A stretch of DNA of 64,000 nt. Origin: Lingula anatina. Taxonomy: Eukaryota > Animalia > Brachiopoda. A program made the translations under genes and the position numbers. The stretch spans positions 59,994,788 through 60,058,787 of the forward strand of contig CM120640.1 of NCBI GenBank assembly GCA_051362555.1. Reading direction: 5' to 3'. Shown here in pieces: positions 1 to 63,734 of the stretch (position 1 is its first letter; each line of letters starts with the position of its first letter). Below the pieces are notes generated by a model. That model had not been told where the DNA came from. It made no database searches and saw only the letters and a program-made list of their open reading frames with translations.

Positions 1-49
1 AAACCTCTCACGAGGCGTTCAAAGTTTTTGATGACATAAGAACCACTTC
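1..49 (-). CDS. TMEM38: TMEM38 alternative exon 4b (truncated by window edge)
   Basis: Acceptor tttttatag (AG 51-50); reads (G)SGSYVIKNFERLVRG, same phase as and homologous to exon 4a. Confidence 0.8.
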
Positions 50-3000
50 CTATAAAAATTATGCACAATTCAAATTGCTGAGCAACTGACTTGTGGTCCT
101 CTTTGATGACGTGTCCTTCCCATTGAAAACTATGAGGAGTAATTTCACTTTTGTTTGTCTCAGTCAGATATGATCTTCCCAGAATTAGAAAATATCTCTT
201 ACTTAATGCATTTTCATCGCAGTAAAATTAACAGAAATTTTGCAACCTCAAACAGTAAAGGTCTACTGAAAATCATTCGCTGTTATGTCATTGTCATTGG
301 GAAAGAGTGCATCACCACAGAGTGCCCAGGAACAGATGGAATCAAGACAAATAAATTTCACATCTTCATTGATTCCATCTTCCTATAATCTTTCAACAAA
401 AGCTTGATCAAAAAGTAATCAATTTAATCAAGTCTTTGTTGTTTTCAATGTGATGAACATAACAAACCTTATGTACTTACAATGTTGGTAATAAAATTTC
501 ATTAACTGTTGGAATCCACACTCCTCGTACCATACGCTCAAAGCTTCTCATAAAAGCAGCACCACCTCCTACAAAATCCAATGTGCTCACAAATCACACA
601 AAACAATGGTGGGAAAGGAAAGTGCAGGGAGAGATGCAGGGTCCACAGTGCAGTCTGCCAAGGACAGTGCAACACTGGGGGGAAGGAAACAGCACAAAAG
701 TGCAGGTAAACAGATAAGAAAACAGAAAAGAAAGAAAAATTCAAACTGCTACTCAACAAAATAACAACATGATAAACATATACAATGGTGACTTAAAAAC
801 AGTATATTGCTCTGATGCAACACTTACTCAGCAAATATGAACATGCAGATGTGTAACAAAATGTCTTTGTAACTTGCTTCCACAATGAAAAATCAGATTA
901 ATTACTCAGCCATTGGAAAAATTATACAAAAAATCTTAAATTATTGTTGATGTGACATCAACTCCCTTTCATACTTTCAATGATTCGTAACAGTTGCAGA
1001 TGTCAAACCACTGCCCAGTTGTAACAACTATTTCATTGCTAACCACTGCCCAGCAGTTGCAGTTATAATAATAAATGCAATGTATAACCATTACTTACTT
1101 GTAACAGCTACCACAATGTTCATCTATTCCCAAGTTGTTACAACTAACAATGTTCAGCAGTAACAATTAACACAACACTTAACTGCTGACCAGCTGTAAC
1201 TACTAACACAATGTATAACCATTGCCTAGTTATAACAACTAGCACAATGTCCAAACATTGCACAGCTGTTACAACTAGCACAATGGTCAACCACTACCCA
1301 GTTTTGACAACTCCAACTGCACCCCCACCTCCAACAATTGACAGCACTTTTGAAGCAAGAAATATAATAGAAACATTTCCATTATGAAGGCCATGACATC
1401 TGACCGACTTCCTAATCATGTGAAAGCTTGTAAGGCTGATTATTTGTTTTCTGTTGCATTTACAAACCTCGTGACACAGCGATTATAATCATTAAAAGGT
1501 AAGCATTTGGATGAAGCTTTGCAGTGATGGCAACTCCGTCATGAACTTGTTTGGCCCTCCGAATTTCAACAGCAAGGAATGCAACTACACGGAGGGGCAA
1601 TAATCTCATAGTTTTGTAGCAGATATCCATAGGTGAGTAGTTGATCAAGTACCTAATAATCACAGGGATAAAGGGAAAAGCAAATTACATCATTGAACAG
1701 ATGTGCAAAGGGTTGGAAGCATTGATGTTTATGAGATATTGCGCCTTTTGGCAATCCTGCAAGATTGAAGGCTGGTCTACAAAAACTAACAGAGTAAATA
1801 GTTTATGTTTTATGTACGATCTGGCAACTGGACCTGCTACAAGCTAGATCAGAATATGAAAATAGATCTGAGAATTTAAAAAGAAAGATTTAATAGTAGA
1901 CTGAATGGTATATTATTAGGGCAGCAATGACAGCAGCAGATCTGAAAAAAATGACGTAGCTATAAGATATAGACTTCTTAATTTTATGCTCTATCTGAGG
2001 ATGAAAAATTCTAAATAAATAATAATTAAAAAATCTGTAGGAAGGTAGTGCTAAAATACAATAATGGTGCTAGTCAAGCAGTCAGTAGCAACTTGGATTG
2101 CACAGCCATTCTAGCACACTGCAAGAACACACCAATACATAATGTTACCTCTAAACAAACAGATCATAGGCAAAAAATACAGGGTGGTCCAAAAAGATGT
2201 ATCCATTTTATTATCCCTATCATTTCAAAGAAAATTTACCCTGTTTCCATGTAAGATATGGCTTTTACGACCAACGCAAATAATGCTGAAAGCTGTGCCT
2301 TCGGAAAAACCATCAGTCAGCCAATCAAAGACCATCTTGATTTCTTGGGCATCATTTTTTTCTGTGACGAGGCAAATGTCCAACTTATTGGTCACGTAAA
2401 CAAAAAATATATGCCCTTTTGGGCTCAGGCTCAGCTGTCACCCACTTCATTAGAAATTGTGTCTGTTTCATGCAGGTTGGGTCATTATGGCATTATCAAG
2501 TAGTCACAGTGAATCAGCACTAAGGAGCTTGGATTGAGCTGATTATAAACTATTGAGCTGTGCTTGCAAAATGGAGGTATGCCAGTAAAAATTATACCAC
2601 AAAAAACTTACATGTCTGTAGGACAGGTGAATGAAAAAAATTGTTTTTTTACTTTCAATAGAAAATGCTACTTCATCAAAAATGGACACATCTTTTTGGA
2701 CCACCCAGTACATAAACATCAACTGAAAAATAATTAACAAAAAATGAAGAAAACAGCAACCATAATGCAACAGAAGCTATGGTCCAGTTAAGCGTGCTGC
2801 TGTTGCCATGGGGAACAGAACTGACCTTTCACCACCCCAATTATGACCATCAGCAAATAGGCATCAGGATAGAGCTGAGCAGTGACCACCACCCCCTGGT
2901 GGACTTTCTTTGCACGCAGAACTTCTTTAAGGACACTAATAACCACCCTGACAGGGAGGAACTTGGCAGCTCTGTACAGTATATCAAAAGGCGAGTAGTT

Positions 3001-6000
3001 AATTATGTACCTGGAATAAAACAGGCACCTGTTGTATTCTGTGCAAGGTTTAACATTTTCATTCTACATGCTGGTGAGCTGCCCTTTCAGTACAAGTGCC
3101 GTAAACACACACATAGTACTCAGGAAAACAGAACATGTTTATGACCTGAAGATGAATCCAGAAAACATTTCTAAGAAAATGAATAACGGCTCCCACTGGG
3201 AGCAAAATTTCAATGTGATTGAGGCATTCATAATATTCATACTGATATAAATATGTAGCAACTGACATAAATATAGTGGAAATAAAGACATAAGTTCACA
3301 TTTTTTTAAACAAACTGACTTCAACATATCACTGACAATTTAATAATAAAGCCTTAAACAAATGTGAAAAACCTCAACACATAAGTGGAATGGATAGCCA
3401 TTTACTATGTTATCACTGAAAAAGCAAAGTTGCAAATCTATGCTATGAAAGTTGTTAAGGAACTGATTTCAAGCTTTTTTTAATAATTAAAATGAAAATT
3501 TCAACCGTGAAAACTTCAGTGACATAAGTAAATAACAATCAGTTTTATCACTTTGTGTAAATGTGTCATGATGAAGACTCATCAGTCTCACTGTCCCACT
3601 TATGGCTAAAATCAAATAACAAATATTTTTCACTTGATTTAGGAAAAATTGCTATAAAATGACCAAAATTAAGGTTTGCCCAATAAAGAGACTAGGGTCT
3701 TCTGTGTGTTAATATGTGGTACAGTGATCATTATAGTGTAAGTTAAGAAGTTTACCTGTAGACAGGAGGGCACACTCCTATAGAATAAGTCACAAGCAAT
3801 TATTGGTAACATTTATATATCAAACTGCTGAGTGACTTAAACCTTTATATCTCTTTTTCAAAAAAAAAAAAAAAACAGCTGGAATACGTAACATCATTCA
3901 GTCAATGGTTATTCTGCATACTGTATTTTACTCACTATTCAATGCTGAAAAATCTACTCAAGTTCTACATCCTTAAAGGAACAATTTGCAAGACTGGCAT
4001 GGATTCATATTTCCCTTTTTTAGGACACATACTGGTGCCACTAATAGTTTGGATCACAATAGGCTGAATGTTGAGAAGTTTTATGAAATTCTTTAAGACC
4101 CTTCCCTAAAAAAAAAGATTATAATAATAATTGTGCATTGAAAATTTTCAAGCAGCATACATTCTTTTTAAGACATGTTTGTAGAAGACTGGGGGGAGAT
4201 GTAGACCATAAACTCACCACACTACTGTTGCTGTTAAGACCATATCGTGTCTCTTGAATGCTACAATACAGGGCTCTCCCAACATCAGGTTGGCAAGGAT
4301 GCTGCCTCCAAAGCACATCAACATGGTCGACACCCAGCATGATAAGGGATGTTTCCGCGAAAAAGCTTGAGATCCTACAAAGTAAAAAATAAATCATTTA
4401 TGGAGTCTATGTGCATTGGTATAATAATATTATATTTGAAATCATACAGCAGGAACAGTAGTAATATTGTTAAATGCATGTCATGTTTGTTACATTGTTG
4501 AGATTATGGTAATAATAATGTTACATTATTGTACAGTTTATATTTCATATCTCACAGAAAACTGTACAGGGATTTATATGGATTTGTAGATCTGATTTCC
4601 ATTTCTGGCAGTAACAGGTACCTACAAAATGGCTTAATTTCTAGAGCCCGTTACTGAGAATCAAGATTACTGGTATATCAAACAACAATGACATTTAAAA
4701 TTGTGAAAACAACCAAGTCCAATTAATATCTCTTCACTATGAGGTTTACCTAAACACAGGCAGGGCACCTTTAATTAATCCCTGTTTCTGTTTCAAATGC
4801 CAATGACCAAGCAAAGTGAGATAGGCTGCTGTAAATCATGTTGCTGAAGTTTCAAAGCATACCTGACATAATAATATATATGCTGTCTACATTTTCAATT
4901 AAGAATCCACAGCATGTGCTCAAGGGGAGGGGGGTTGAGGGGTGAAAATGAACTGCCCTTTTGGGTGGAGATAAGGTCACTTTTGAATAAAAAAATTATC
5001 TAGTTTTATGTACATGCATACATTTTATTGTGAAAAGGCCCACTTATCAAAAAAATGTTTATGTTTATTTTTATTATATATATATATATATATTTTTTTT
5101 TTTTTTGACTGATGAACCTAACACAGACATAACTCTGATTAACATGTCATGGTGTGCCACTATAACTCACTTCAGATTGAAATCAGTAAGACAATAACCT
5201 TTGAGATGCCCCCTCCATATGGTAACAGGGCAACATCTCTCCAAGCACACATCTACCTGTGCATACCTGACATGCAGGCACCTCAGAATTTCAGCTAGTC
5301 CCACTCTATATCCCAACTAGCAACAAGTGACCAATAAAATATATTCAAAGAAACTTGAAAGACTGAATTCCAAAGTCATATCTATTTTATTTGAGGGGAT
5401 TGCACAAGATATGGGAATATTGTTTTTTAATAAAAGATAAAAGATGAACATGTCATGATTTATAAAATAACTCAAATGCTTACCAAAACATAAATATGGT
5501 ATTTCTATACACATAGAGGATGTGTATAACCACATTATCTTATTTTACTTTCAAAAGAGAACAATATACTTTTAAACCATATTTTAACATAATTTTACAT
5601 TATATGTAAACAAAGTTATTTTATACCATTAAAACATCATACTGGATAATAGTTGGTATAGCACTGTTGCACTTGGATATGTTACTTTCATGTTAGTATT
5701 ATACTTAATATTGAGGTGTACAGTACATATTCCTTTTACCTGCCTCACTCTGTGCAGGTCCCAGACCTGCCTACATTGGGCTCTATTATTGTAGAGTTCA
5801 CAGCTGTGTGGATCTTACTGTGCTACCTATATTTACATTTCCTAAAATATCTCACCCTTCCAATATCAGGTTACGTTTCTGCTAGTATGAGGAGTTGCTC
5901 CACCTCTGGCAGCCATTACTAGATCAAGTATTTGATCAGGTAGATATGCATGGATCAATCTAAAAGCATCTTATCCAAAAATTATACCATTTGAAAGGAA

Positions 6001-7771
6001 TTCTGAAAAAAATATATGGATCAACTGCTTTGCCCTAGTCCAGTCCACTTCAAATCTAAACCCTTCCAAAATTATTCTTTTTCAAGAGAAATTGTTTTTT
6101 TTTACAAGATATTATCAATGCACAAGTATATCTAAAGGGGATATTCATCTCTGTCAACGCAGGTGTACGGTTTGTTATTCACACACACACACACACATAC
6201 ATGTATACATGCACCACTGCAGACTGATGTCCTGAATGGTCCAACAGATCATTTTAAATCCACAAACCTATACAGAACCACAGAGATCAGTGGGACATTA
6301 ATTACTGGACATTTCCTCTTAAAATGTTGATGTGAAGACATCCTAATAACCAAATTAAATCTTACTTGAAAGAAATTGAGGAAAAGGTCAACAAGACCAA
6401 GGATAAGTAATTTGATGGTTCAGTACCTGAAACATTTTCCTTGCTTCAGCAGCCAGCCATGTACCCCTCAAACAATACCAACTCGTTCTTGCATAATACT
6501 ACAGTTGTGTATGAATGACCACTGGATAGCCCCAAGTGGACACTGATATATGAGACTATTCAAAACTCTCTGGTTAAATGGGATTGATGAGGTGTGAGAC
6601 ATTTCATACAACAATGATCGTAAAAATTGCCTACTGTGTGCTATACATGTATTTACTTCTTGTAACATTACATGACATGTAGTACAGTTTACAGATCCTA
6701 GCTCTGCCTGTCACGAAAAGAAAAAAATTGCACACACTAATACAAAATATGTTACGTATATTTTGTAATCGAACTTTCCTTGACAAGTCGTAAACTAAAG
6801 TGTTGCTTTTTCATTTCTTAACTTAACATGTAAATATGGGCCAAGTGAACATCTTTTAAACAGATACAGTAGTCAATAACCGTCAGAGAATGAAAGACCT
6901 GCAGAAGCCCTGTGTAAAAACAACATTCCATTGTAATAACTTACAATTTTACTGCAGCCATTATCAAACCAGTGATAAATAAAAACATGTGTGATACTGT
7001 TAACATTTACAAAATTATTTCTGGCATTTTAAATATGCAGTGAATGACTGTATTCTTAATATTGGTGGGGGCTTGAAATCCTATTTTACCATTCATTAAC
7101 GCCTGGAACTAGCATCAGGTAGTTTCTGGCCTCTACCAAACATTTGAAACAATTCAGATATAATTTCATCTGTTTAACTTTACTGCAATTTTATGAAAAT
7201 GTGTAATTCTATTGTGGAACATTAATAACAAGTTGCAGTGTTCCCCATAATCTGACCCAGAACAAAATTAGCAAAAAGGGCAAAAATACTCATATAATAA
7301 AAATATTTCAAAATTGTTCAATTTTAAAAGAAAATATTCCATTTAGCTAGTTAAATCACGAACTCAATTGCTCTTAAAGGTTAATTTGTAATAAAGATAA
7401 CAATATCAGTATATTAATGGAGTAATGATTAATAGTCTTTGTTTACAAACTGCTTAAGTGACATGGCAAAGACAGATCTTTGCAAAATACACAGATAAGG
7501 ATATGGTACATAGGTATAGCATAAACCAAACTGCATAATAACGCGTATGCAATATGTACTTTAAGATCTTCCACTAAGTAATCGCACTTTAGCACACGTA
7601 ATACTACGGGTAGGCGCAGAGATTCCACTGCCAGAGCGCCGACTTACCGGTCTGTGGCGAGTCTTCACGGACCGCTAGTGCCATCAAAATATAGTGACAA
7701 ACGTCAAAGTACGGCCACATTTTTAGTTTAGAGACCGTCGTCGCTATATTCATGAAGGTTTGTGGATCCAT
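1..7771 (-). CDS. TMEM38: Trimeric intracellular cation channel (TRIC/TMEM38), 5' part, with duplicated exons 3 and 4
   Basis: ATG 7771. E1 7771-7648 (MDPQTFMNIATTVSKLKMWPYFDVCHYILMALAVRED), E2 4374-4218 (SRKHPLSCWVSTMLMCFGGSILANLMLGEP), E3a 3010-2826 or E3b 1652-1468, E4a 568-481 or E4b 49-<1. All GT-AG with matching phases; TRIC motifs SRKHP, FGG, GEP, KEVxRxxK, ERxxRGxW. Runs off the left edge. Confidence 0.93.
481..568 (-). CDS. TMEM38: TMEM38 alternative exon 4a (88 nt)
   Basis: ttttgtag acceptor, gtaagt donor; reads (G)GGAAFMRSFERMVRGVWIPTVNEILLPT. Confidence 0.88.
1003..1312. repeat. Degenerate ~36-bp minisatellite
   Basis: About 8 diverged units resembling AACCA(C/T)TGCCCAGTTGTAACAACTAGCACAATG. 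Confidence 0.6.
1468..1652 (-). CDS. TMEM38: TMEM38 alternative exon 3b (185 nt)
   Basis: attattag acceptor, gtttgt donor; YLINYSPMDICYKTMRLLPLRVVAFLAVEIRRAKQVHDGVAITAKLHPNAYLLMIIIAVSR, no stops or indels. Confidence 0.88.
2180..2708 (+). mobile_element. Internally deleted Tc1/mariner-superfamily transposon
   Basis: TA TSD (2178-2179, 2709-2710); ~30-bp TIR CAGGGTGGTCCAAAAAGATGTxTCCATTTT; transposase remnant IIFFCDEANVQLIGHVNK, resembling the first catalytic Asp motif (FSDEA..L.G.VNK). Confidence 0.8.
2826..3010 (-). CDS. TMEM38: TMEM38 alternative exon 3a (185 nt)
   Basis: tttattccag acceptor, gtcagt donor; YIINYSPFDILYRAAKFLPVRVVISVLKEVLRAKKVHQGVVVTAQLYPDAYLLMVIIGVVK. Not represented in the ORF track. 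Confidence 0.9.
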
Positions 7772-8441
7772 TTTGAAATTGTGTGGGAACACTCCACAAA
7801 AGGAGACGGCGAAAATCCTGCACCTCGACCGGAAATATCGAAAGAAAGAGAGCGCACGCGCGAGGGATTTCCCCAAAGTGAAAGGTCTTTGAGAAACAAT
7901 GATAAATATGTAGACTAGCTGTATGTGCACTGCCTCTTACACGCATGTTTTCTTTCTCGTTGTGCAAGTTTTAAACCAAACAAAAAGTAACAAAAAAAAA
8001 AAAAAAAACTATAAAACTAAAATGTCATTACTAAATTTGCATTAACTTAGTAAGACAAACAATTAAAATTGAGTCTGCTGAGCTTGCTGAGACAGATCGG
8101 TTTACACTGTTGTGTAGCCGACAGGTGCAAAATGTGAGTGTCTTTACGTTAGGATTTTTCCTCATTCACTGATATAATTGACGTAAGATAAAGATTAGGC
8201 ATACCATGTTATTAAATAAAGCTGTTGTAACAAATATGCATCAGAGGGGAGGGGCTAAAGCGCCGCTTTAGAGGTGAAATCTGTAATATCGCTTTTAAAC
8301 AGATATCCCTCACCTGAATTTAGCTACATGTACAGGAATGTACCAAGTAAAATGTTTCGCCTCAGTTTTCGTCAAAGGACACAGTTTTGTACAAAAATCA
8401 GCATAGGCAACCACGTGCTTTTGAAATGACTTGTATTGAAC

Positions 8442-14546: not shown

Positions 14547-16103
14547 TATTATTATTATTATTATTATTATTATCGATGCTGAATAAATTACAGTTTAATT
14601 TGTTCCCTTGCAATTATCCTGTTCCAGGAGGAAGATATTGATGACCTACCTGACCACTGGAAGCCCAGCCTACCAGATTTACAAAGTTCTGGTAAAACAA
14701 GTAAAGAATACTCTTGTCCTTGTGGTGACCAGTACATTCAGGTAACAAAGTTAAAGAAATACTGCAGTGATGGTGCTGATTAAAACAAAATTCAAAACTA
14801 AAATTAAAACTGTGCAAGTGCAAGATAAGTACAAACATGTTGTAATTTGAATGGATGCAGGTTGTGAAATTAGCATATGACTTAGAGGGAAATATACAAA
14901 AAGACTTGAATGTTTGTTATAATGGGGTTTTTCCCATTTAAAAACAGTTTTAATACTTAAACAGAAAAGCTTTGTTTTCAGTTAATAAAGCGCTGCTGGA
15001 GTGACAATCCATTTGACAGACCAAACTTTGAACAAATTAAGCGACAAATCCACAAGATCAACCCCAATAAACAGAGCCCAGTGGATATGATGATGACCAT
15101 GGTAAGCTGCTCTCACTTTTTTTTTTTTTTTTTTTTTTTTGTAAGTAGGAAAAATACTGTGCTTTATAAACTTTGCTTATCATTCATTTAAATCATTTCA
15201 TTATTAAATTTATTTTGCCTGGTAGTTGAAAAACAAAACTCAATGTACACTTTGTTTCTAGATGGAGAAATATTCAAAGCATCTGGAAGTGATGGTTGCA
15301 GAGAGAACTCAGGATCTGATGGCAGAGAAGCAGAAAACAGACAGACTATTATACAGTATGTTGTTAGATGTATAACATATAACTACATGTACCAGACACA
15401 TAATTACATGTATATGGCATGTCTTTCATGTCATTCAGTTAACAAATGAGATATAATTTGGCAGAGAAGACTAGTAATTCTTATACTCAGTTATGGTAGT
15501 ATACATATACTGGGGTATCTATGTATCAGCTGTTTTTCCAAAAGAATGATTCAATGGAACACAATGAAGGACTTTGATTGAAATTGTATCTCTGTGGAGA
15601 TGAAATCAGTAGGCAGATCTATTAAGTTGAAATATATTTCCAGGCATGTTACCTAAAAGTGTAGCAGATGCCCTGCGTCTTGGAAAACCAGTTCAAGCAG
15701 AGTCCTTTGAGTCCTGCACCATTTTCTTTAGTGACATTGTGGGTTTCACTGAGCTGGCAGGACACAGCACACCTCTGGAGGTGGTCACACTGCTCAATAA
15801 ACTGTACACATGCTTTGATGAAATCATTGACAGATACAGTGTATATAAAGTGGAAACAATAGGGGATGCATGTAAGTACGGTTGGTGTATGGTGGATTTT
15901 GTTGCAAAGTGTACTAGTATGTGAATTGTTGTAACACAACTTTTCTTTGATGGTCAAATGACCATGACTCCTATTTTGGTACAAAATGTTATTAATCAGA
16001 TTAAACATAACAGGTTCATAAACAACATCACCAAATGTCATATGTTAGTATATAATCAGGTTATTACAACTTATACAAGTACATTGGTGATTATACAATG
16101 GAA

Positions 16104-16153
<50 letters not shown>

Positions 16154-17839
16154 TTGTATCATGCATACAAAATTAATGCATTTATGAATTCATTGGATGT
16201 TGCAGATATGGTTGTATCAGGAGTTCCAATAAGAAATGCAAACCACCACTGTAAAGAAATAGCTAATCTGGCTATTGACTTGGTAAAGGAAAGTGAAATG
16301 TATGTTATACCTCACAAACCTTATGAGTCACTCAGGATAAGAGTGGGACTGCACTCGGGTATGTTAGATGTAGGATCTTTCAAACACAGCGCCATCTTGG
16401 ATCAAAAAATAATAAAAATGTGCCATTTGAATTTTACAGATGACCAAATTGATCTTCAATGTGGAATTTATTCATATAAATGTTTTAAACCCCAGTACAA
16501 TAGGCCATGTAAGTACACTGCCCTGTGCTACAATTTATATTGAGGTGGCTAACCCATCTTTGATTAAATATTTGCTATTGTTGTTTAGGTCCAGTGTGTG
16601 CAGGAGTAGTTGGTTTGAAGATGCCCAGGTACTGTCTGTTTGGTGATACTGTGAACACTGCCTCCAGGATGGAGTCTACAGGGGAAGGTAAGTATAGTCA
16701 GCATGGTGGTCTTAGAACGCATTCAGAACAGCTGACTTACATATCTGTGGATTAAATATGGCTGACCCACTTGAATGCTTGTTGCATAATCCCCGTGGCG
16801 AATCTATTTAGTGTCTAATCGGAAATTAAGCGGCAATCTTTTTAGTGGGTCACCATATTTGATCTGCAGATCTGTTAGTCTGCTGTTCTGAATGTGCTCT
16901 TAGTGAGTATTACTGTACATAATTCTCATGACATGTCTATCATTCTTCAGGGAGCGTAGGGTCATCTTGTCTCTGCATTTTTTAAAAAAAATTTTAAAAT
17001 TTTAAAATTATTTTGTAAAAAAGCAATTAACACACAAAATGTGTCCTATTTAAAGATATACTGTACAAGATTTTGGTGCAAGGATTTTTCTTTATGGCAT
17101 AAGCCTTGCGATTAGTTGCAAGCATTCCTTGATTTTTCACTTCATGTAAAATTTTATTTTTGAGAAGGGAACAGAAATTCAGTTACTTAAATATGATGAT
17201 AAATGTACTCGTTTAAAGATATTAGTGCAGGTCATCATCATTTAACAAAGAATATGGAAAGATTTAAGATGTTGGACATTCCATATGATATTCCTTTCAA
17301 AGGGCAATGATGCATAACAGTTACCATTCCTTATAACAACAAGCCACCAGAAACGGTTAATAAACAAATCAAATAAATAGAAAAGTGACTGGCTCAATCG
17401 GATAGTGCTAGTTAACACACTGTTCATGTGAGCAGTGTGCAAATTTCAGACACTAAAAGATATGAATTATGATTTGAAGGTGAAGTGTTGTATGATACAT
17501 TCCAGCTGGGAAAATCCACATAAGTGATACCACATACCAGCTGCTACAGGAATATCAGGGGTTCTGCTGTCAATCCAGGGGGACCATCCCTATCAAGGTA
17601 GGTGACATTTAATTTGTATTCAAAATTATTGCTAACATACAAAAAATTGACTGACTTCGTGGTGATTGATTCCCTAGCTCAGAGTGAACAAATAACAAGA
17701 TTTCCTCATTATGTGACATTTCTAGGGAAAAGGGGACATGAAAACCTGGTGGTTAGCAACATTCCCAGCAAACAGACTAGAAGAAGTGAAAGCTAACATT
17801 CTTAGAAATGACAGCATCAATGAAATACTAGGTATGTAA
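10008..17839 (+). CDS. Single-pass receptor guanylyl cyclase (~858 aa) with short Cys-rich ectodomain
   Basis: 19 exons: 10008-10073, 10215-10320, 10737-10893, 11043-11368, 11627-11775, 11956-12028, 12280-12430, 12622-12708, 12922-13065, 13273-13394, 13644-13825, 14628-14741, 14982-15101, 15262-15355, 15644-15871, 16206-16358, 16589-16687, 17506-17597, 17726-17839 (2577 nt, in frame). Signal peptide, TM ([22 protein letters not shown]), kinase-homology domain (EYCPKG, HGRLKS, DFG), coiled coil ([16 protein letters not shown]), cyclase motifs [42 protein letters not shown] with the GTP-specifying E and C. Confidence 0.92.
11551..11580. repeat. (TG)n microsatellite
   Basis: Perfect dinucleotide run. 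Confidence 0.95.
14392..14484 (+). pseudogene. Decayed partial copy of guanylyl cyclase exon 11 inside intron 11
   Basis: gtaaagcctacagagtgtaaagagtcccagaactgacacac...ccaacaccagaggc...tctggtagaaattgccacaag aligns to ~13695-13810 with substitutions and deletions; no splice sites. Confidence 0.8.
14508..14573. repeat. (AAT)n joined to (ATT)n, a self-complementary microsatellite
   Basis: Read directly. Confidence 0.9.
16107..16150. repeat. (AT)n microsatellite
   Basis: Read directly; similar runs near 5076-5092 and 18339-18371. Confidence 0.95.
16715..16899. mobile_element. PIF/Harbinger-like MITE
   Basis: TTA TSD; TIR GAACGCATTCAGAACAG...CTGTTCTGAATGTGCTC; related copy at 40827-41092. Confidence 0.7.
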
Positions 17840-23400: not shown

Positions 23401-26400
23401 AACATGGAGGCACATATCACACTTTAAACAATGAAAGAAATTGTCTCTACCACCAACTCTGAAATCACAAATATAAGAACTTTGGAGAGGTAACAACTCT
23501 TTTATCCCTTGTATCTCATGTATTATTTATGACGAGCATGTACATCATACCAGATATTGATGGTAAATAAAATCAGTATGCAAATGCCCAAAAACATATA
23601 ACAATATTTTTTTATGAAAAGGCAATTAAAGAATAATATGACAGATGAGTAACTTAAGACATTTAAGTCTACAGAGATATTAAACATACATATTTAGATA
23701 AAAACATCTCAACCTTAATTTTTGCCAAAGTACCTGCATATTCCACAGGCATCACAATGAAACTGCTTCTTATCCTGGTCATCAAACAAATTGCACACTT
23801 GACAGAAATACTTTCCAAACTGGACCATGCACTGTCTGCAATTACTGGCCACCTATATGTGGACATTTCTTTTAAAAATCAAAGTAATCCTATTTTATAG
23901 TTTCACAGAAAAAAGGTTACTAGTAATTAGTTTCTGTCTATACTTCAGGTTTTTAAAAAAACAAATTTAATTCCATAACATATTTATCCAATTAAAACTT
24001 CACAATGCACATTAAGGCTTCGTTCACATGCAATGTCTATTTTCTAAATTCTATTTTCTATTTTCGGTATGTCTTATGATCACGGTCTGTGCACTGAATA
24101 TCCCGTGGCGTAATTACTGGCAGCGCGAGCCAGTTACTATAAGTTACTATAAGTAACTGGCTCGCGCTGCCAGTAATTACGCCGCGGGATATTCAGTGCA
24201 CAGACCAGGCCCGTAGCCAGGGGGGGGTCGGGGGGTTCGAAAGAACCGCCCCTTTTGCTGGGAAAAGGTCCACTCTGGGTAAAATTTTATCTAGGTACAT
24301 GAACATTTTATGGGAAAAGGTCCACTTTTTCAGTAAAAGAACCCCCCTTTTGAAATTGCTGGCTACGGGCAAGCAGACCGTGGTCATAAGATAGCGCGAA
24401 TAGAAAATAGAATTTAGAAAATAGACATTGCATGTGAACGAAGCCTAAGTGTTCCTTATATCAAAATTAAATAAATGTAGACAGAAACAAACAAACAAAT
24501 AAACTAGAGGATCAGAGAGGCGATACCGCCTCCAGATATTGTACCACCAGCTGGAGTAAGCGCATTCGTATGGACCCCCCCCCCTCCTAAAAGGGACACC
24601 ATCACCAGTCTGGTGTTTGACAAGCTCTATAAGATGCAATCAACAAGAGTTCTCAAAATATGCAAAAAATATAACTAAAAATGATACAATCAAGCAGATT
24701 TTCAAATTGACTTGCATTTTCCTACCCTTGCTCACTACTGTATTCTCTAGACAAAAGGCCTATTGGTTTTCCTTGAAATGTGTTGTCAATGGTGCATATA
24801 TGCTGACAAAAGAGAAAACCTAGGGGAAACAATGGGCACATCTCTGCTAGATTTCAAGATATGAGAGGCAAGAAAATATGCAAAGCTCAGTTCATGGTGA
24901 AAAAGTAGGTCAAAGGTCAATTTCAATATCATAGTATATGAATTTCTATTCAAGTTCAATAGCAACCATGGACATTTCTTTGCCAATTTTGCAGATTTAA
25001 AGGCCAGAAAACATGCAAAAAGCAGTTCATCATAAAAAGTAGGTCAAAGGTCAATTTCAAGGTCACAGATTGCTAGTGTATTACTTCCTATTCAAGTTCA
25101 ATAGTAACTATGGACCTATCTGTCAGTTTTGAAGATAAAGGTGAACGAAAATTTGCTAAGTTCAGTTCATAGTAAAAGGAAGGTCAAAGGTCAATTTAAA
25201 GGTCACAGTAAATTGCCAGTTCATGACTTCCTATTTAAGTTCAATAGTAACTATGGACCTATCTCTGCCAGTTTTGGAGATTAAAGGGAACAAAAATTGG
25301 CAAAGTTCAATTCATGGTGAAAAGTAGGCCAAAGGTCAATTTTAAGGTCACTGATTAATTGCCAGTATGTGACTTCCTATTCAAGTTTAATAGTGACTAT
25401 GGACCTATTATGGGCGGCGGTTTATACAAAAATGCAAAACACGATTAGTCGTCATCGTTATCAGATCAGTCGAAATGAAAACACGATTAGTCGTCGTCGT
25501 TATCAGATCAGAAGGCAAAATACGACTAGTAGTCGTCAAAACGCAACTAGTCATCAAAACGCAACTTGTCATCATCAAAACGCAACTAGTCATCATCAAA
25601 ACGCAACTTGTCATCAAAACGCGATTTGACGCCAGATGGCGCCCATTGTACGAAAATCTAGGCCAAGTCACATGATCCACAGTGATCAAAATGGCGGACG
25701 TTATTGAAGCAGCATTATCATATTCCTCGCTCGAACTCGAGAATTATCTCGAGTTCGAGATATTATTATATATATAATATCATTATTAGATTGTACGCGT
25801 AGAGATAATTCTCGAAATAATAAATAATTAGATAATTTATTAAATAATTTGGACATGTTATAAATTTAAAAAAAAACAAAAACACACACTTGTGAAGCAC
25901 TGCTTTATTGTTGTACTCATTTCACAAGTTCCAGATATTATTATATATATAATATCATTATTAGATTGTACGCGTAGAGATAATTCTCGAGGTCGAGCGA
26001 GGAATATGATAATACTGCTTCAATAACGTCCGCCATTTTGATCACTGTGGATCATGTGACTTGGCCTAGATTTTCGTACAATGGGCGCCATCTGGCGTCA
26101 AATCGCGTTTTGATGACAAGTTGCGTTTTGATGATGACTAGTTGCGTTTTGATGATGACAAGTTGCGTTTTGATGATGACTAGTTGCGTTTTGATGACTA
26201 GTTGCGTTTTGACGACTACTAGTCGTATTTTGCCTTCTGATCTGATAACGACGACGACTAATCGTGTTTTCATTTCGACTGATCTGATAACGATGACGAC
26301 TAATCGTGTTTTGCATTTTTGTATAAACCGCCACCCATAACCTATCTCTGCCAGTTTTGGATATTAAAGGGAACAAAAATTGGCAAAGTTCAATTCATGG

Positions 26401-30234: not shown

Positions 30235-33200
30235 TAAGGGGGGGGAGAGGTTAATTGTCGCCGTTTCCGCTGCACGAATATGTTAGTGGCCTAATTGCGA
30301 GATTCTCGAGGGGGCGTGTCCGAGGGTCACTCAAAACACAATATAAAAAATATGATATCCAACACCTGAATGCTCTATAAAGATTTAAAAAAGAGTGTTT
30401 TATTTTTCAGGGCATACTGAAGTTGGGGATTGCTGAGAACAAGCTGACGGAAGAAATCATTATCAAACGGGTGTGAGAAACAACACATGACTGTTGAAGT
30501 CTTTGGAGTCCATTATCTTTCAACATAAAATTCAAATTTTCTAGTATCTGTAAAAGGATAGAACGTATTGCAGTTTTAAGCCAAATGTTTTACAAGGGTG
30601 CAACGTGCTGCAGTTTTTAGCGCCAGTCAAACAATTTGATCTTATACATATATTTACAACGATCAAAATAAACTTGATGTGTAAATTTGGCACAAATATC
30701 AATTTTTTATTATTCTTACATTGTTATGTAACATTTACAATTGCAGCTCTCTGCCCCCGACATGCATGTAGTCACCCCTGATATGCTGTATTATTTTAAC
30801 TACATTGGCGAGAAGAGGTAGACCTACAACGAGGGGAAAAAAACGGGAAATCAATTACACTAGTGCTACTCTTTAAACTTGTAAAACAATAAAATGTATT
30901 TTTGGGCTTAGTTAAAATTAAAGCGCAATTCAGAGGAGTATCATGTAGGAATAGATGCCAAAATGTAATATGATATGTTTAATATTCCTCTCTTGTGTTT
31001 TAGCTTCAGGAACGCTATTGCCGAATTTATCACAGAAAGATTCCACACACGTAAGCCTGTTGACCCAGACGATGTAAGTGGTAGGTCTATCTGGTTCGAA
31101 GTTAAGTGATATGATTAGATGCGATAATTAACTCGGCTACTAAAATGCTACACCAGTGTTTGTCTGCGTGCTGCGTTGCTCTGTGTGAATTGATGTCATT
31201 GTTTTATGAGTCACCGATTAAGGTGTTTTCATTTATTTTATTTGACCATTTTTATGTTTAAGGTGTTGGTCATCAATGGGTGTGGTACTGCCCTGGAACA
31301 ACTCCCTGCTGCTGTAGCTGACCCCGGGGGTGAGTGGAGCACTTACGTGCCTTTTGTATTTGTAATGGACTAAATTTAATGGTGTAGGTATATCGTAATA
31401 TCAGTTTTTGACTATGTCATTTCTCAGATTATTTTCTTTTTACAGACTTCTTCCTGTGCCCATCGCCCGTCTACAGTTCTGTCCACGCGAACGCAGAACT
31501 GAGGATGAAAGTCAAGTGTTTCGATGTGCCATTGAAAAGCAAGGTTGTCTGTTTGTTGATGTTTGTCTTGTTAATTTTATGGATGAACAAATAAGTTCGG
31601 CTCTGCTGAGTTTTGCATTTAACTTTATTGCAGAAAAGTTAATTAGTCAAGGTAATGAAGGTGGTTTGTTTGTTGAATTTGCTTCTTACCAAAGGCTAGG
31701 TATGTGGTGACGGCATTTCTAATCAACAATTCGCTCACAATACAGAAATGAGCACAGAATTATTTTTAGTCAGAGAAATATAAATATCTAATGAAGAATC
31801 TCTCTGCGGCCCTTGTAGAAGGTAGCTGAGGTCTGCGTTTTCTTTTGATTGGATGCATAAAACACGCTTAATCGACTAGATGCTGATAAATAGGGGAGCT
31901 TCTATCTCTGAGCTCCAAAGAACTGACGATGACTCTATTTACCAACAATATGTTCTCCGTCATTGTTTTAGTATCTCGGGTAAAATTAGCTTACGCTATT
32001 TAGGAACCAGCAAACTAATATTGGGTCCTAGATTATATAGAGGAGTTTTAGAAAAATTATGAAAAGCAAACTGAAGAGATATTAATGAACTTTAATGTGA
32101 TGTTATCGTGTTTGATCTTGTTTTCAACCCATCGCAAAATATAAGTATGCTCTCAATTACAGGCAAGTGATGCTGCAATAAGGCCATTCCAGCTTACGTT
32201 GGCTCAGATAGAAGGTTCATATAACGAGGCAATAAAACTGGTGCGTGCATAGTCATTGGGATAAAACTACAGAAAACGTGTGATCTCAATAAGCATTCTC
32301 TACATATTGATATATCATTGTGATAAACGTATTTTAGAAGAAAGCAACACGATACACGTTTGCAATATTACATCACCATGTCACTTGTGCAGTGCTAATC
32401 GGTCTCTTCAGGGATTGAAAGTAAAAGGCATATTCCTCATAAACCCCTGCAACCCAACTGGAGAAATCTGTTCTCGTGACCTGCTGACAGAAATATTAAA
32501 CTTCGCAAAAAGGTATGATTCACCTTTTTTTGACCATATGAATTCCTATTATACGTATATTTCAAATGTCCCCTGTGCCCTTTTCTGTTTTAGTTTTAGG
32601 CCCAAATATTTCAGCGAGGTATATGGTCCAGGGTTTAATATCTGTTTTCATAATATTCTTTGTTCTTTCAATAGTCGATGTCTTCATGTAATAGTTGACG
32701 AGATCTACGCCTTGTCCGTGTTTGATTCAGAGGCCAGGTTCCACAGCGTTCTCTCACTTCCAGATCTCCCAGACCCTCAACGCACGCACGTTCTATGGGG
32801 ATTTAGTAAAGTAGGTAACTCCCATGCCAATAAATTATTTTCCACTTTTGCGTATTATTTTCTTTCGACGAAAAACTATTCAAAACACCTATTAAAGACG
32901 TTAAACGGTGGCGCTGAATCTAGTGTTTTTAAACCAAACAGGCGATAACAAACTTATTTCGTGCACATTTAATGTTAGTTATTGACAACCACGAGTGAAT
33001 AAGGAGCGGGGCAGTGTTTTGTAGAGTAACTGAGTTGCTTGGCATGTCCTCATAATACTTTAGCAGAGGAATGCAATGTAAACGGAGAAGGCCGCTTGAA
33101 AAATGAAAAGAAGGCGGCTTGAGAACCAACTGGAAATAAAATGACATGAAAAAATATAACGCTGTTGTATTTACTACCTCATGTACATGTAACAACAGAA

Positions 33201-61900: not shown

Positions 61901-63734
61901 TCATTAGCACCAAGGCAGTAGGTAGCAATGAGCGAGAAGATCTTACGAGTGCTTACAAGTTTAAGGAAGGTAGGTAATGCAATTATAGGACTGAAACTTG
62001 AGAAATATCATAATTAACCTATCTCATTAAGAGGCTAGGGATTTCTTAAGTGGACATAGAGTGAGGTATTAATTTAATTCATTCATGTAAAATTTACCAT
62101 TAGTTACAACTTTTTAATCTTTGTTCATGTATAGTAATTATAACTGTACAGTAATAGGGTCACATTCTGACTTTCAGGTTCAGATGCAGAACGAGCTGCT
62201 GTACGCCATGCATTCAAGTTTGGCAGCCGCAGGGAGCAGAAAGTTTATAAACCTGAGGCAGAAGATGTTTCCTTCAAGATCACCATCCCACCTGTGGTAG
62301 CCACAGGGAAGGACTTTAATGTCCAGCTAGACTTGAAGAATAATGGTAACAGCATTAGGGATGTCAAGGCCACCTTGACTGCCCTCACTAGCTTCTACAC
62401 TGGTGTGCCCTCAGATCGCATCAAATGTCAGACATTTGAAATAACTTTGGATCCAGATCAAGGTCAGAGTTTTTCACCTTTTTTCAGATGTGATTTTTTC
62501 TTCTTCTTCTCTGTCTCTCTCTTTGCATTTTGAATTTTTAAGACTGGATTAAGCAACTAACAAAGAGCTACACTGTTACCTTCTTGCCCATTTTCTGTAC
62601 ATATTCATATGGCAGTTTAAATTCACAGGAAATTTGCTAAAATATTCTTTCACTAAAGCAAGTAGATGATAATGTTGTAACAAGGGTATTGCAACTGTTG
62701 TAGAAAAGAGCATTGACATTGATGTGCTAGCAGACGACTACATGGAACTGCTGAAACCTGATGCACTGATCCAGGTGTATGCCAAGGCCAGGGTGAAGCA
62801 GACAGGACAGGCATTTGTTAGAGAGGACACCGTGGATCTGTCACCTAGCATGGAGGTTGACGTGTTGAAGGTAGGTGCACTCATCATACTATATCACTTG
62901 CTTGTTAGCAAAGGTTACACTTGAATATTTTATTGCAATTGTATTTGTGATGAAACTATTTGAAACTTGTCACTTGAATGACGGAGTTGTAGAGATAAAA
63001 TATACCAGCGTCTACCAATAATTGTGTTTCATATTTACAGCTACAAGCTCCAGAAAGAGTGAATAGATCTGAGCCATTTGAATTGCGTATGAAGTTCACT
63101 AACCCTCTGAAGATCCCCATCACTAAAGGGATGTTTCGCATTGAAGCTGCTCACATCGTACGCAGCAAGGTCATTCCTATAAAGTGAGTGGAGAGTTCAA
63201 TTCTAACTGAATGATTATTAATGACTTTTAGATTTGTTTGATATCTGATGCCTGTAGTGTGGACATAGGTTTAGATTTCCTGTGAAATTGTAACAGATAA
63301 TGAAAGATTGTATTTAGATACACAGTTTATGTTTGCTGCCTTTGTTAAATGCTTTTCACTGTTTTCAACTGTTAAAAAATTCCATTATATACACCAACAA
63401 AGCTCATTATTAATACTATCTCAATCAGCACTATTAACCCAAGTTGGAGTTCTAAGCTTTTGACCACCTATTTCACTTTCAACAGTCAACCCATTCAAAT
63501 GTAACAGCATGCAGTTTGTTAACTTTAGATAACTCGGAGTGCGTAATCCTTTATTTGAGTTTATTAGGACTGACATATGTTCTCTTCAGACAAACCATCG
63601 CTCCAGGTGCGGAAGTGGTGGAGACTTGTGTGTTGACAGCAAAGCTGCTAGGCCAGACAGAAATTCTGGTCAATTTTTCTTCAGATCAGATGGTTGGAAT
63701 TTATGCCTCAACCAATTTATATGTCCACATTTGA
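57104..63734 (+). CDS. TGM: Protein-glutamine gamma-glutamyltransferase (transglutaminase), ~747 aa
   Basis: 15 exons: 57104-57192, 57569-57660, 57832-58005, 58505-58765, 59092-59210, 59448-59555, 59775-59952, 60480-60615, 61072-61175, 61497-61612, 61843-61969, 62178-62462, 62704-62870, 63041-63183, 63590-63734 (2244 nt, in frame). [23 protein letters not shown]; catalytic triad [22 protein letters not shown]. Confidence 0.95.
58859..58932. repeat. (TGA)n plus (TG)n compound microsatellite
   Basis: Read directly. Confidence 0.95.

Follow-up and report, generated by a model that had tools for sequence, protein, structure and literature searches.

Crosswise-linked mutually exclusive exon pairs in a brachiopod TRIC gene and a splice isoform without two conserved lysines

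A single TMEM38/TRIC gene of the brachiopod Lingula anatina contains two consecutive pairs of alternative exons, and junction reads establish exclusivity within the pairs, crosswise linkage between them and near-complete switching among samples. The outer pair (3a+4b) would yield a channel in which the conserved motif is complete, and the inner pair (3b+4a) a subunit lacking two conserved lysines. We think it reasonably probable that this is a regulated splice switch whose alternative products are a canonical channel and a lysine-less subunit, the latter with gating predicted to be altered and likely mostly closed.

Locus and exon architecture

The gene lies on the minus strand of the window (the whole 64-kb stretch of DNA analysed). 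An earlier note, made from sequence alone, had proposed duplication of exons 3 and 4, and on rechecking every one of its exon coordinates holds. The features are as follows.

Coding exon 1 (E1), 7771-7648, minus strand: 124 nt coding, ATG at 7771; E1-E2 junction in 8/8 RNA runs.
Exon 2 (E2), 4374-4218, minus strand: 157 nt, constitutive, residues 42-94, with RNA junctions.
Exon 3a, 3010-2826, minus strand: 185 nt, canonical copy, motif KEVLRAKK; spliced only to 4b in the reads seen.
K122 codon of exon 3a, 2928-2926, minus strand: within KEVLRAKK.
K129 codon of exon 3a, 2907-2905, minus strand: within KEVLRAKK.
Exon 3b, 1652-1468, minus strand: 185 nt, derived copy, motif VEIRRAKQ; to 4a in 155 reads, to 4b in 29.
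V122 codon of exon 3b, 1568..1570, minus strand: lipid-binding lysine replaced (K130 in C. elegans TRIC-B2).
Q129 codon of exon 3b, 1547..1549, minus strand: pore-gating lysine replaced (K129 as numbered in vertebrate TRIC-A; C. elegans K136/137).
Candidate regulatory element, 601..740, minus strand: pyrimidine-rich, containing CTGCA[C/T] repeats and preceding the 4a acceptor, which is weak.
Exon 4a, 568-481, minus strand: 88 nt, begins within the helix-5 glycine kink; seen after 3b only.
Exon 4b, 49-1, running past the window edge, minus strand: first 49 of an expected 88 nt; follows 3a and, in study P3, also 3b.

The 5' ends of RNA reads near exon 1 cluster at about 7818-7823. Every acceptor is AG, and the five donors within the window are without exception GT; the 4b donor falls outside it, where the sequence of 4b is known from RefSeq proteins only, its full length being inferred from these. 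Both 3a/3b and 4a/4b are homologous, equal in length and phase, and equipped with their own splice sites. The exon 3 copies are identical at 34/61 amino acids and 109/185 nucleotides, and identity at the three codon positions (35, 48 and 24 of 61) is the pattern of a reading frame kept. Each copy scores above the Pfam TRIC cut-off of 25.9 bits (3a, 75.7; 3b, 57.1), as do the combinations against PF05197 (3a4b, 259.9; 3b4a, 230.6; gathering score, 25.9). A tblastn search revealed no additional exon copies within the window. Inclusion of both exon 3 copies or neither had been expected to shift the frame, and the joins of these kinds that were tested do so; 3a+4a+4b and 3b+4a+4b alone among tested joins show a single stop before the window end. 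Such both-or-neither products would be removed by nonsense-mediated decay.

The alternatives are already annotated: RefSeq isoforms X1-X4 of Lingula anatina (XP_013398594-7) comprise the identical four exons in four combinations, although as automatic models they carry no comment on linkage or residues. The earlier note was not aware of a description of this arrangement for TMEM38, and we found no paper on it.

Exon choice in RNA

We examined junction reads in eight of nine available raw-read runs from coded samples (X1-X5 and X7-X9), reading 6-30% of each run and treating a junction with fewer than three reads per run as unlisted. Transcripts in all eight runs carried one exon 3 plus one exon 4, and every copy was spliced, including both copies of exon 4, which supports the proposal of a single gene with two mutually exclusive pairs and sample-specific use. 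Junctions E2-3a, E2-3b, 3a-4b, 3b-4a and 3b-4b were all read, while 3a-3b, 4a-4b and E2-4 were listed in none of the eight runs at the three-read threshold. Exon 4a splices past 4b to the next exon beyond the window (loose read ends at 481). The reads carry the 3b residue changes, with no read variant listed at the V122 codon.

Summed over the eight runs, the junctions between the pairs gave 184 reads for 3a-4b, 155 for 3b-4a and 29 for 3b-4b. Three of the four subunits once envisaged were thus observed, but 3a-4a, which RefSeq models as isoform X3, was listed in 0/8 runs (threshold, three reads per run). Under independence, 17.8 3a-4a reads were expected in runs X4 and X5 (Fisher P = 5e-27, or 3e-23 when two hidden reads per run are allowed) and 7.9 in X7-X9 (P = 1e-5; worst case, 0.019).

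Usage differed strongly among studies, with E2-3a/E2-3b reads of 0/160 in P1, 280/20 in P2 and 33/39 in P3. Isoform 3b-4a was the sole isoform seen in runs X1-X3, 3a reached 93% in two runs and 3b-4b was seen in P3 only. E1-E2 junction counts were 59-107 in 3b-only runs and 154-179 in 3a runs. Tissue, stage and genotype are confounded in these comparisons because the samples are coded.

The linkage could be explained by a shared cell-type splicing factor that likely activates 3b before 4a, the latter needing a higher dose; such a factor would produce 3a4b, 3b4b and 3b4a but no 3a4a. This model is borrowed from a published membrane-transport gene in which one factor acts on two exclusive, tissue-specific exon clusters; in Lingula, by comparison, the clusters are adjacent and the main choice is between outer and inner pair. 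No cis mechanism emerged from the intron comparisons. A search for competing RNA pairing between introns, of the docking-site and selector type (four intron pairs; shuffles scoring no worse than the real sequence, 20, 19, 1 and 7 of 40), gave no signal for looping out 3b+4a (4/12 by a crude score, 19/40 with real energies). Pairing around 3a beat 12/12 shuffles by the crude score and was lost with real energies (20/40), and pairing around 4a, with 1/40 shuffles as good, is not convincing among four tests. Genomic contigs L025 and L029, which each hold two tandem 88-nt exon-4 copies with AG/GT sites, have no intronic blocks in common away from exon edges, and their comparison with the window introns gave a single weak match (E = 0.14). 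TGCATG occurs at 2474 and 847. With regard to exclusivity through U2/U12 incompatibility or steric closeness, the donors GTGAGT, GTCAGT, GTTTGT and GTAAGT are unlike the U12 donor. In the introns of 1173 and 431 nt, AGs occur no more than 92 and 28 nt from the acceptors, which would argue against distant branch points.

Loss of two lysines in exon 3b

The TRIC motif KEVxRxxK (PMC9899828; PMC5143425) is present in 3a (KEVLRAKK) and absent from 3b (VEIRRAKQ), through K122V and K129Q. Among close homologues K122 occurs in 117/118 and K129 in 118/118, with V and Q found at these positions in none; among divergent representatives K122 occurs in 85/106 and K129 in 80/106. In C. elegans, K130 and R134 are PIP2-binding residues, and the middle of the pore is lined by K136/137 (PMC5401562). 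If mutants in other species are a guide, lipid head groups would bind more weakly without K122, and a pore with Q129 would tend to be closed, so that in cells using 3b the counter-ion flux accompanying calcium release may be smaller or under different regulation. A close parallel is the engineered TRIC-A mutant K129Q (PDB 6iz1; work of Wang et al. 2019, cited here from a review, PMC7940156): chain 6iz1 has Q at the K129 alignment column, like 3b, and wild-type 6iyu has K. In contrast to this mutant, 3b is natural and splice-controlled, and adds K122V and 25 more differences from 3a.

The swapped region begins where helix 3 ends and reaches the loop that precedes helix 6, close to the M4-M6 span first estimated. 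A structure model of 3b+4a, which leans on a 55-row family alignment, has the TRIC fold (pLDDT, 81.8; best PDB match 5egi, E = 8.5e-17), and all 11 PDB matches at E <= 0.001 are TRIC structures. The helix-5 kink matters for TRIC (PMC5143425), and its glycines G156 and G158 are kept in 4a and 4b alike; position 160 is A or Y in the exon 4 copies versus G in 87/118. In family match and fold Lingula thus resembles other eukaryotic TRICs (PF05197; C. elegans TRIC-B1/B2, 5egi/5eik; vertebrate TRIC-A, 6iyu, and TRIC-B, 6iz3), from which it differs in having two exclusive exon pairs spanning helices 4-5. Since 3b isoforms lack the motif, they are TRICs by descent and fold but non-canonical channels by motif. 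Both exon 3 copies rank PDB chains in the order C. elegans, TRIC-B, TRIC-A. The idea that splicing here does what vertebrates do with separate TRIC-A and TRIC-B genes fails at the key residues, as the vertebrate chains of both types keep KEVxRxxK while 3b lacks both lysines; this, the common ranking and the sister relationship of 3a and 3b among invertebrate sequences do not fit one A-like plus one B-like isoform.

The switch might be real and the 3b subunit nevertheless fully conducting, having lost only voltage or lipid regulation, or even being more open. We rate this as rather unlikely, though it has substance: the 27 residue differences between 3a and 3b include changes that may compensate, E123 and R126 are retained and an arginine is gained at 125, both lysines are absent in 14/106 divergent relatives, and, if the 3b channel is shut, a tissue that has no other form, as 3b-4a in X1-X3 would imply, needs explaining. 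Prokaryotic TRICs conduct without the motif (PMC5401562; PMC5143425). The review cited above gives K129A as constantly open but K129Q as mostly closed (PMC7940156); the substitution in 3b is Q, and the lipid-site lysine is lost too.

Origin of the pairs and significance

In a tree without vertebrate rows, 3a and 3b are sisters (98/79) with end branches of 0.19 and 0.52, and 3b is more distant than 3a from homologues in 117/118 comparisons. Among the 15 and 31 candidates searched, a 3b-like exon was found in Lingula only, which weakly suggests that other lineages lack the exon-3 pair. The exon-4 pair is more widespread: isoform pairs differing in exon 4 only, with other compared regions 100% identical, occur in the nemerteans Tubulanus and Lineus and the annelid Owenia, and the pair is absent in the mollusc records examined. 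Two-class scoring assigns 4a and 4b of Lingula alike to the 'Y' side (margins, 17.5 and 26.6, respectively) and so does not pair them off with the annelid and nemertean copies. None of six AU tests rejected separate exon-4 duplications (P = 0.16-0.46), the 28 columns giving them little power. In annelids, nemerteans and brachiopods the exon-4 pair is probably ancient, and the exon-3 pair would have arisen later, in the Lingula line, with 3b then diverging faster.

This divergence raises the possibility, which we regard as improbable, that 3b is under relaxed constraint and slowly decaying, its use switching the channel off where TRIC matters little, with no new function. Beyond its distance from homologues and apparent restriction to Lingula, two of its three P3 variants change residues (3a has two variants, both silent), but these two (A121V and L114V) are conservative. 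Length, frame and splice sites have been kept despite near-saturated silent divergence (3a versus 3b: pN, 0.31; pS, 0.72), as in old, constrained copies, and E1-E2 counts are of the same order in 3b-only and 3a runs. Moreover, an annelid-like paralogue without either lysine, present at 17/70 loci holding exon 3, has lost them independently and is under purifying selection (pN, 0.064; pS, 0.50).

Genotype or cryptic species, rather than regulation, is a very improbable source of the sample differences and the missing 3a-4a. Reads from P3, the only study with 3b-4b, do depart from the window sequence at some dozen positions, with 565, 602 and 620 near the 4a acceptor among them, yet P1 and P2 are both near the window sequence (~93-96% of aligned reads at 99%+ identity) and show opposite isoforms, and P2 and P3 runs contain both forms. 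An assembly artefact fusing two haplotypes or paralogues, which the earlier note had named as a refutation, can be dismissed because raw reads show a single E2 spliced to either exon 3 copy, and 3b to either exon 4 copy, exactly where predicted; with 59% identity, the copies are also too distant for alleles.

Under the favoured reading of a regulated switch, the natural isoforms of one gene differ in their lipid-site and gate residues, one of them corresponds to an engineered mutant, and the switch from one to another involves whole samples. Comparing the three isoforms side by side would directly test the gating model, the adjacent outer-pair/inner-pair linkage offers a compact system for linked exon choice, and the exon-4 pair might serve as a rare genomic marker, since a brachiopod, nemerteans and annelids have it and the examined mollusc records do not. 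Very little is known about what TRIC does in invertebrates (PMC5477506), and its essential counter-current role in calcium release has been challenged, according to a review (PMC7940156). It is possible, though we advance it tentatively, that animals repeatedly make non-conducting lysine-less TRICs, through linked splicing in Lingula and through duplicated genes in annelid-like lineages. If the lysine-less TRIC is non-conducting, the only TRIC in some Lingula cell types would be a closed protein that serves calcium-release channels as a structural or regulatory partner, and this would be a natural test of whether TRIC must conduct at all.

Exon choice in TMEM38/TRIC transcripts

The TMEM38/TRIC gene carries two copies of exon 3 and two of exon 4, all on the minus strand at the positions that the earlier note had read from the sequence, with exons of other genes nearby:

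7771-7648, minus strand, TMEM38/TRIC exon 1 (E1)
4374-4218, minus strand, TMEM38/TRIC exon 2 (E2)
3010-2826, minus strand, TMEM38/TRIC exon 3a
1652-1468, minus strand, TMEM38/TRIC exon 3b
568-481, minus strand, TMEM38/TRIC exon 4a
49 to beyond the window edge, minus strand, TMEM38/TRIC exon 4b
16091-16540, plus strand, adenylate/guanylate cyclase domain exon of a neighbouring gene
32265-32945, plus strand, class I/II aminotransferase exon of a neighbouring gene
62171-62530, plus strand, transglutaminase C-terminal domain exon of a neighbouring gene

A repeat-containing segment at about 25400-26340 is present twice in opposite orientation; the two ORF translations, at +25984 and -25743, are almost the same. 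At window position 7781, in the 5' untranslated region, nearly all reads of all eight RNA runs have T instead of G on the plus strand; either the assembly is wrong at this base or the reference carries a private allele.

The duplication of exon 3 was confirmed: both copies are 185 nt long with equal phase and AG/GT ends, exceed the Pfam TRIC cut-off and are identical at 34 of 61 residues (35, 48 and 24 of 61 at the three codon positions, the third being lowest). The frame shift expected from including both copies or neither was seen in the tested both-copy and no-exon-3 joins. The 3b peptide is a 100% match to a Lingula anatina RefSeq protein, and RefSeq isoforms cover all four combinations (isoform X1, 3a4b; X2, 3b4b; X3, 3a4a; X4, 3b4a); both exon pairs are therefore already machine-annotated.

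Splice junctions were counted in eight of nine available raw-read runs, which come from three studies (P1, runs X1-X3; P2, X4-X5; P3, X7-X9), with 6-30% of each run read.

Junction reads per run (listed from 3 reads with 2 starts; 0, below threshold)
Junction: X1, X2, X3; X4, X5; X7, X8, X9
E1-E2: 107, 59, 67; 154, 179; 46, 24, 29
E2-3a: 0, 0, 0; 138, 142; 8, 14, 11
E2-3b: 67, 49, 44; 12, 8; 17, 11, 11
3a-4b: 0, 0, 0; 87, 74; 9, 5, 9
3b-4a: 33, 47, 28; 12, 8; 9, 12, 6
3b-4b: 0, 0, 0; 0, 0; 11, 9, 9

At this threshold (3 reads, 2 starts), no 3a-3b, 4a-4b, E2-4 or 3a-4a joint was listed in the eight runs, and the absence of the first three bears out the proposal that the exons are mutually exclusive. 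Among the up to four isoforms proposed, 3a4b, 3b4a and 3b4b are present in RNA, leaving the 3a-4a combination unlisted in all eight runs. After 4a, reads run on into sequence matching the constitutive exon that follows in the RefSeq protein, and not into 4b (loose ends at 481, 8/8 runs). Independent choice would predict 17.8 3a-4a reads in X4 and X5 (p = 5e-27) and 7.9 in X7-X9 (p = 1e-5), with none listed in either; granting two hidden reads per run gives 3e-23 and 0.019, for reads that are not fully independent molecules. The exons are exclusive within each pair, and the choices of the two pairs are linked, a junction table that a mixture of cell types can produce just as linkage within cells can. 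P1 and P2 show opposite isoforms though both closely match the window, and the P3 genotype is more distant from it; samples are identified by codes, the isoform switch being a difference between coded samples that tissue, stage or treatment may drive.

Consequences for the channel protein

In a structure model of 3b4a, exon 3 comprises the end of a helix (84-99), a long helix (112-140) and a third (145-156), which would be membrane helices 3, 4 and 5, while exon 4 starts at the break preceding helix 158-169. The TRIC motif reads KEVLRAKK in 3a and VEIRRAKQ in 3b. The 118 close homologues compared (P0004-P0121) include many near-duplicates; the lipid-site lysine K122 occurs in 117 of them and the pore-gating lysine K129 in 118, and none has V at 122 or Q at 129. 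Exon 3b also departs at G152 (117/118) and K155 (116/118). Codons 122 and 129 had no listed read variant in any of the eight RNA runs.

Passages of PMC9899828 give KEVXRXXK as the lipid-binding consensus and K129 as the gating residue, placing the motif in TM4, and part of PMC5143425 places it between TM5 and TM6. In C. elegans, PIP2 is bound by K130/R134 and the central site enclosed by K136/137, according to a section of PMC5401562; K129A is described as constantly open and K129Q as mostly closed in a passage of a review (PMC7940156). PDB chain 6iz1 has Q at the alignment column of K129. Exon 4 begins inside the glycine kink; in yeast, most of the activity was gone when this kink carried a triple alanine mutation (excerpt of PMC5143425). 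We predict, with somewhat more confidence than doubt, that 3b isoforms would be mostly closed or strongly altered in gating. Of 150 divergent representatives, 106 span the region; 80 of these have K129, 85 have K122 and 14 have neither, which cautions against over-reading the lysine loss.

At window position 565, codon 157 of 4a is changed from Gly to Val in 9/9 covering reads of X8 and X9; the codon belongs to the kink of helix 5, and the site lies 4 nt from the acceptor.

History of the exon pairs and related genes

Exons 3a and 3b are sisters in the tree (98/79; end branches 0.19 and 0.52), with 117 of 118 homologues closer to 3a. Silent divergence between them is almost saturated (pS 0.72, pN 0.31), so the pair is old, with the 3b reading frame preserved. 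A 3b-like exon was sought outside Lingula and not found among few candidates.

The exon 4 pair is more widespread. Isoform pairs from Tubulanus, Lineus and Owenia differ only in exon 4, with identities of 14/28, 9/27 and 11/28 there and 100% wherever else they were compared. Among at least 74 genomic TRIC loci in the matches listed, L025 and L029 have one exon 3 followed by two tandem 88-nt copies of exon 4 that are bounded by AG/GT; both are constrained (pN 0.08 and 0.11 versus pS 0.67 and 0.24). The tyrosine-rich copy of annelids and nemerteans forms one group (92/95) and takes the second position in each of the two loci; Lingula 4b, likewise second, leans toward this class more than 4a. Since 4a and 4b lack supported placement in the tree and AU tests rejected no separate exon 4 duplications, a single origin is likely, not proven. 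The mollusc-like contig L031 has one exon 4 only, between exons 3 and 5, and no exon 4 isoform pair was found in six mollusc clusters examined. At L031 2107-2142, 12 codons of the exon 3 start are repeated between exons 4 and 5, ending in a stop (a fragment or a misassembly). In Tubulanus TRIC (P0006/P0039, P0024/P0123), the first coding exon likewise comes in two alternative, homologous versions (22/37 identical), in addition to the exon 4 pair.

An annelid-like paralogue with motif DQxHxxHH, found at 17 or more of at least 70 loci with exon 3 (L058-L074), has lost all three basic motif residues, forms a separate clade (100/100) and is under purifying selection (pN 0.064, pS 0.50). The assemblies that contain it also carry a canonical paralogue (L050 and L060, for instance), and this loss is independent of that in Lingula 3b. 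The canonical sister gene (L036-L057) retains one tyrosine-rich exon 4. Further divergent TRICs (P0202, P0186, P0197, P0160, P0149 and P0227) have eroded motifs, VELFRTQQ in P0202 having V and Q as in 3b; several of their exon 4 sequences resemble the annelid non-tyrosine copy, both observations being confounded by general divergence. Intronless TRIC reading frames on long metagenome contigs (L011 10001-10876, L012 1030-1905) are 49% identical to the query with the motif intact.

Proposed mechanism and meaning

The splicing account is very probably correct; exclusivity, linkage, switching and residue changes were demonstrated. Frameshifted products would be removed by decay, a common situation for mutually exclusive clusters: in 60% of the human ones, length is not a multiple of three (in part of PMC5740500). 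RNA looping-out of the inner pair (3b and 4a) received no support from pairing analyses. In the simplest model, one cell-type factor would promote 3b and, at higher dose, 4a too, yielding the three forms seen; this would resemble unc-32, where one factor governs both exon sets (passage in PMC3585155). Alleles close to the 4a acceptor may instead explain the 3b-4b form of P3. Candidate regulatory elements are:

2474, TGCATG
847, TGCATG
740-601, pyrimidine stretch

The 3a-3b intron also holds a non-coding element (2178-2710) that has TA at each end and resembles a Tc1/mariner-type MITE; its terminal inverted repeats are 32 nt long and 94% complementary, and no further copy was found within the window. 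The 3b-4a intron contains a degenerate tandem repeat (1000-1316; unit about 36 nt, eight copies of a 31-nt core).

A literature search at the level of titles and abstracts, with few subscription papers, found no paper on mutually exclusive, duplicated or invertebrate splicing of TMEM38/TRIC, nor one on an adjacent outer/inner exon pair, and a look-up by sequence gave no hit; genome-wide exon tables in supplements could list the gene. Exclusive exons in an ion channel are a known kind, but the Lingula TRIC switch differs, and is notable, in removing the family's gate and lipid lysines.
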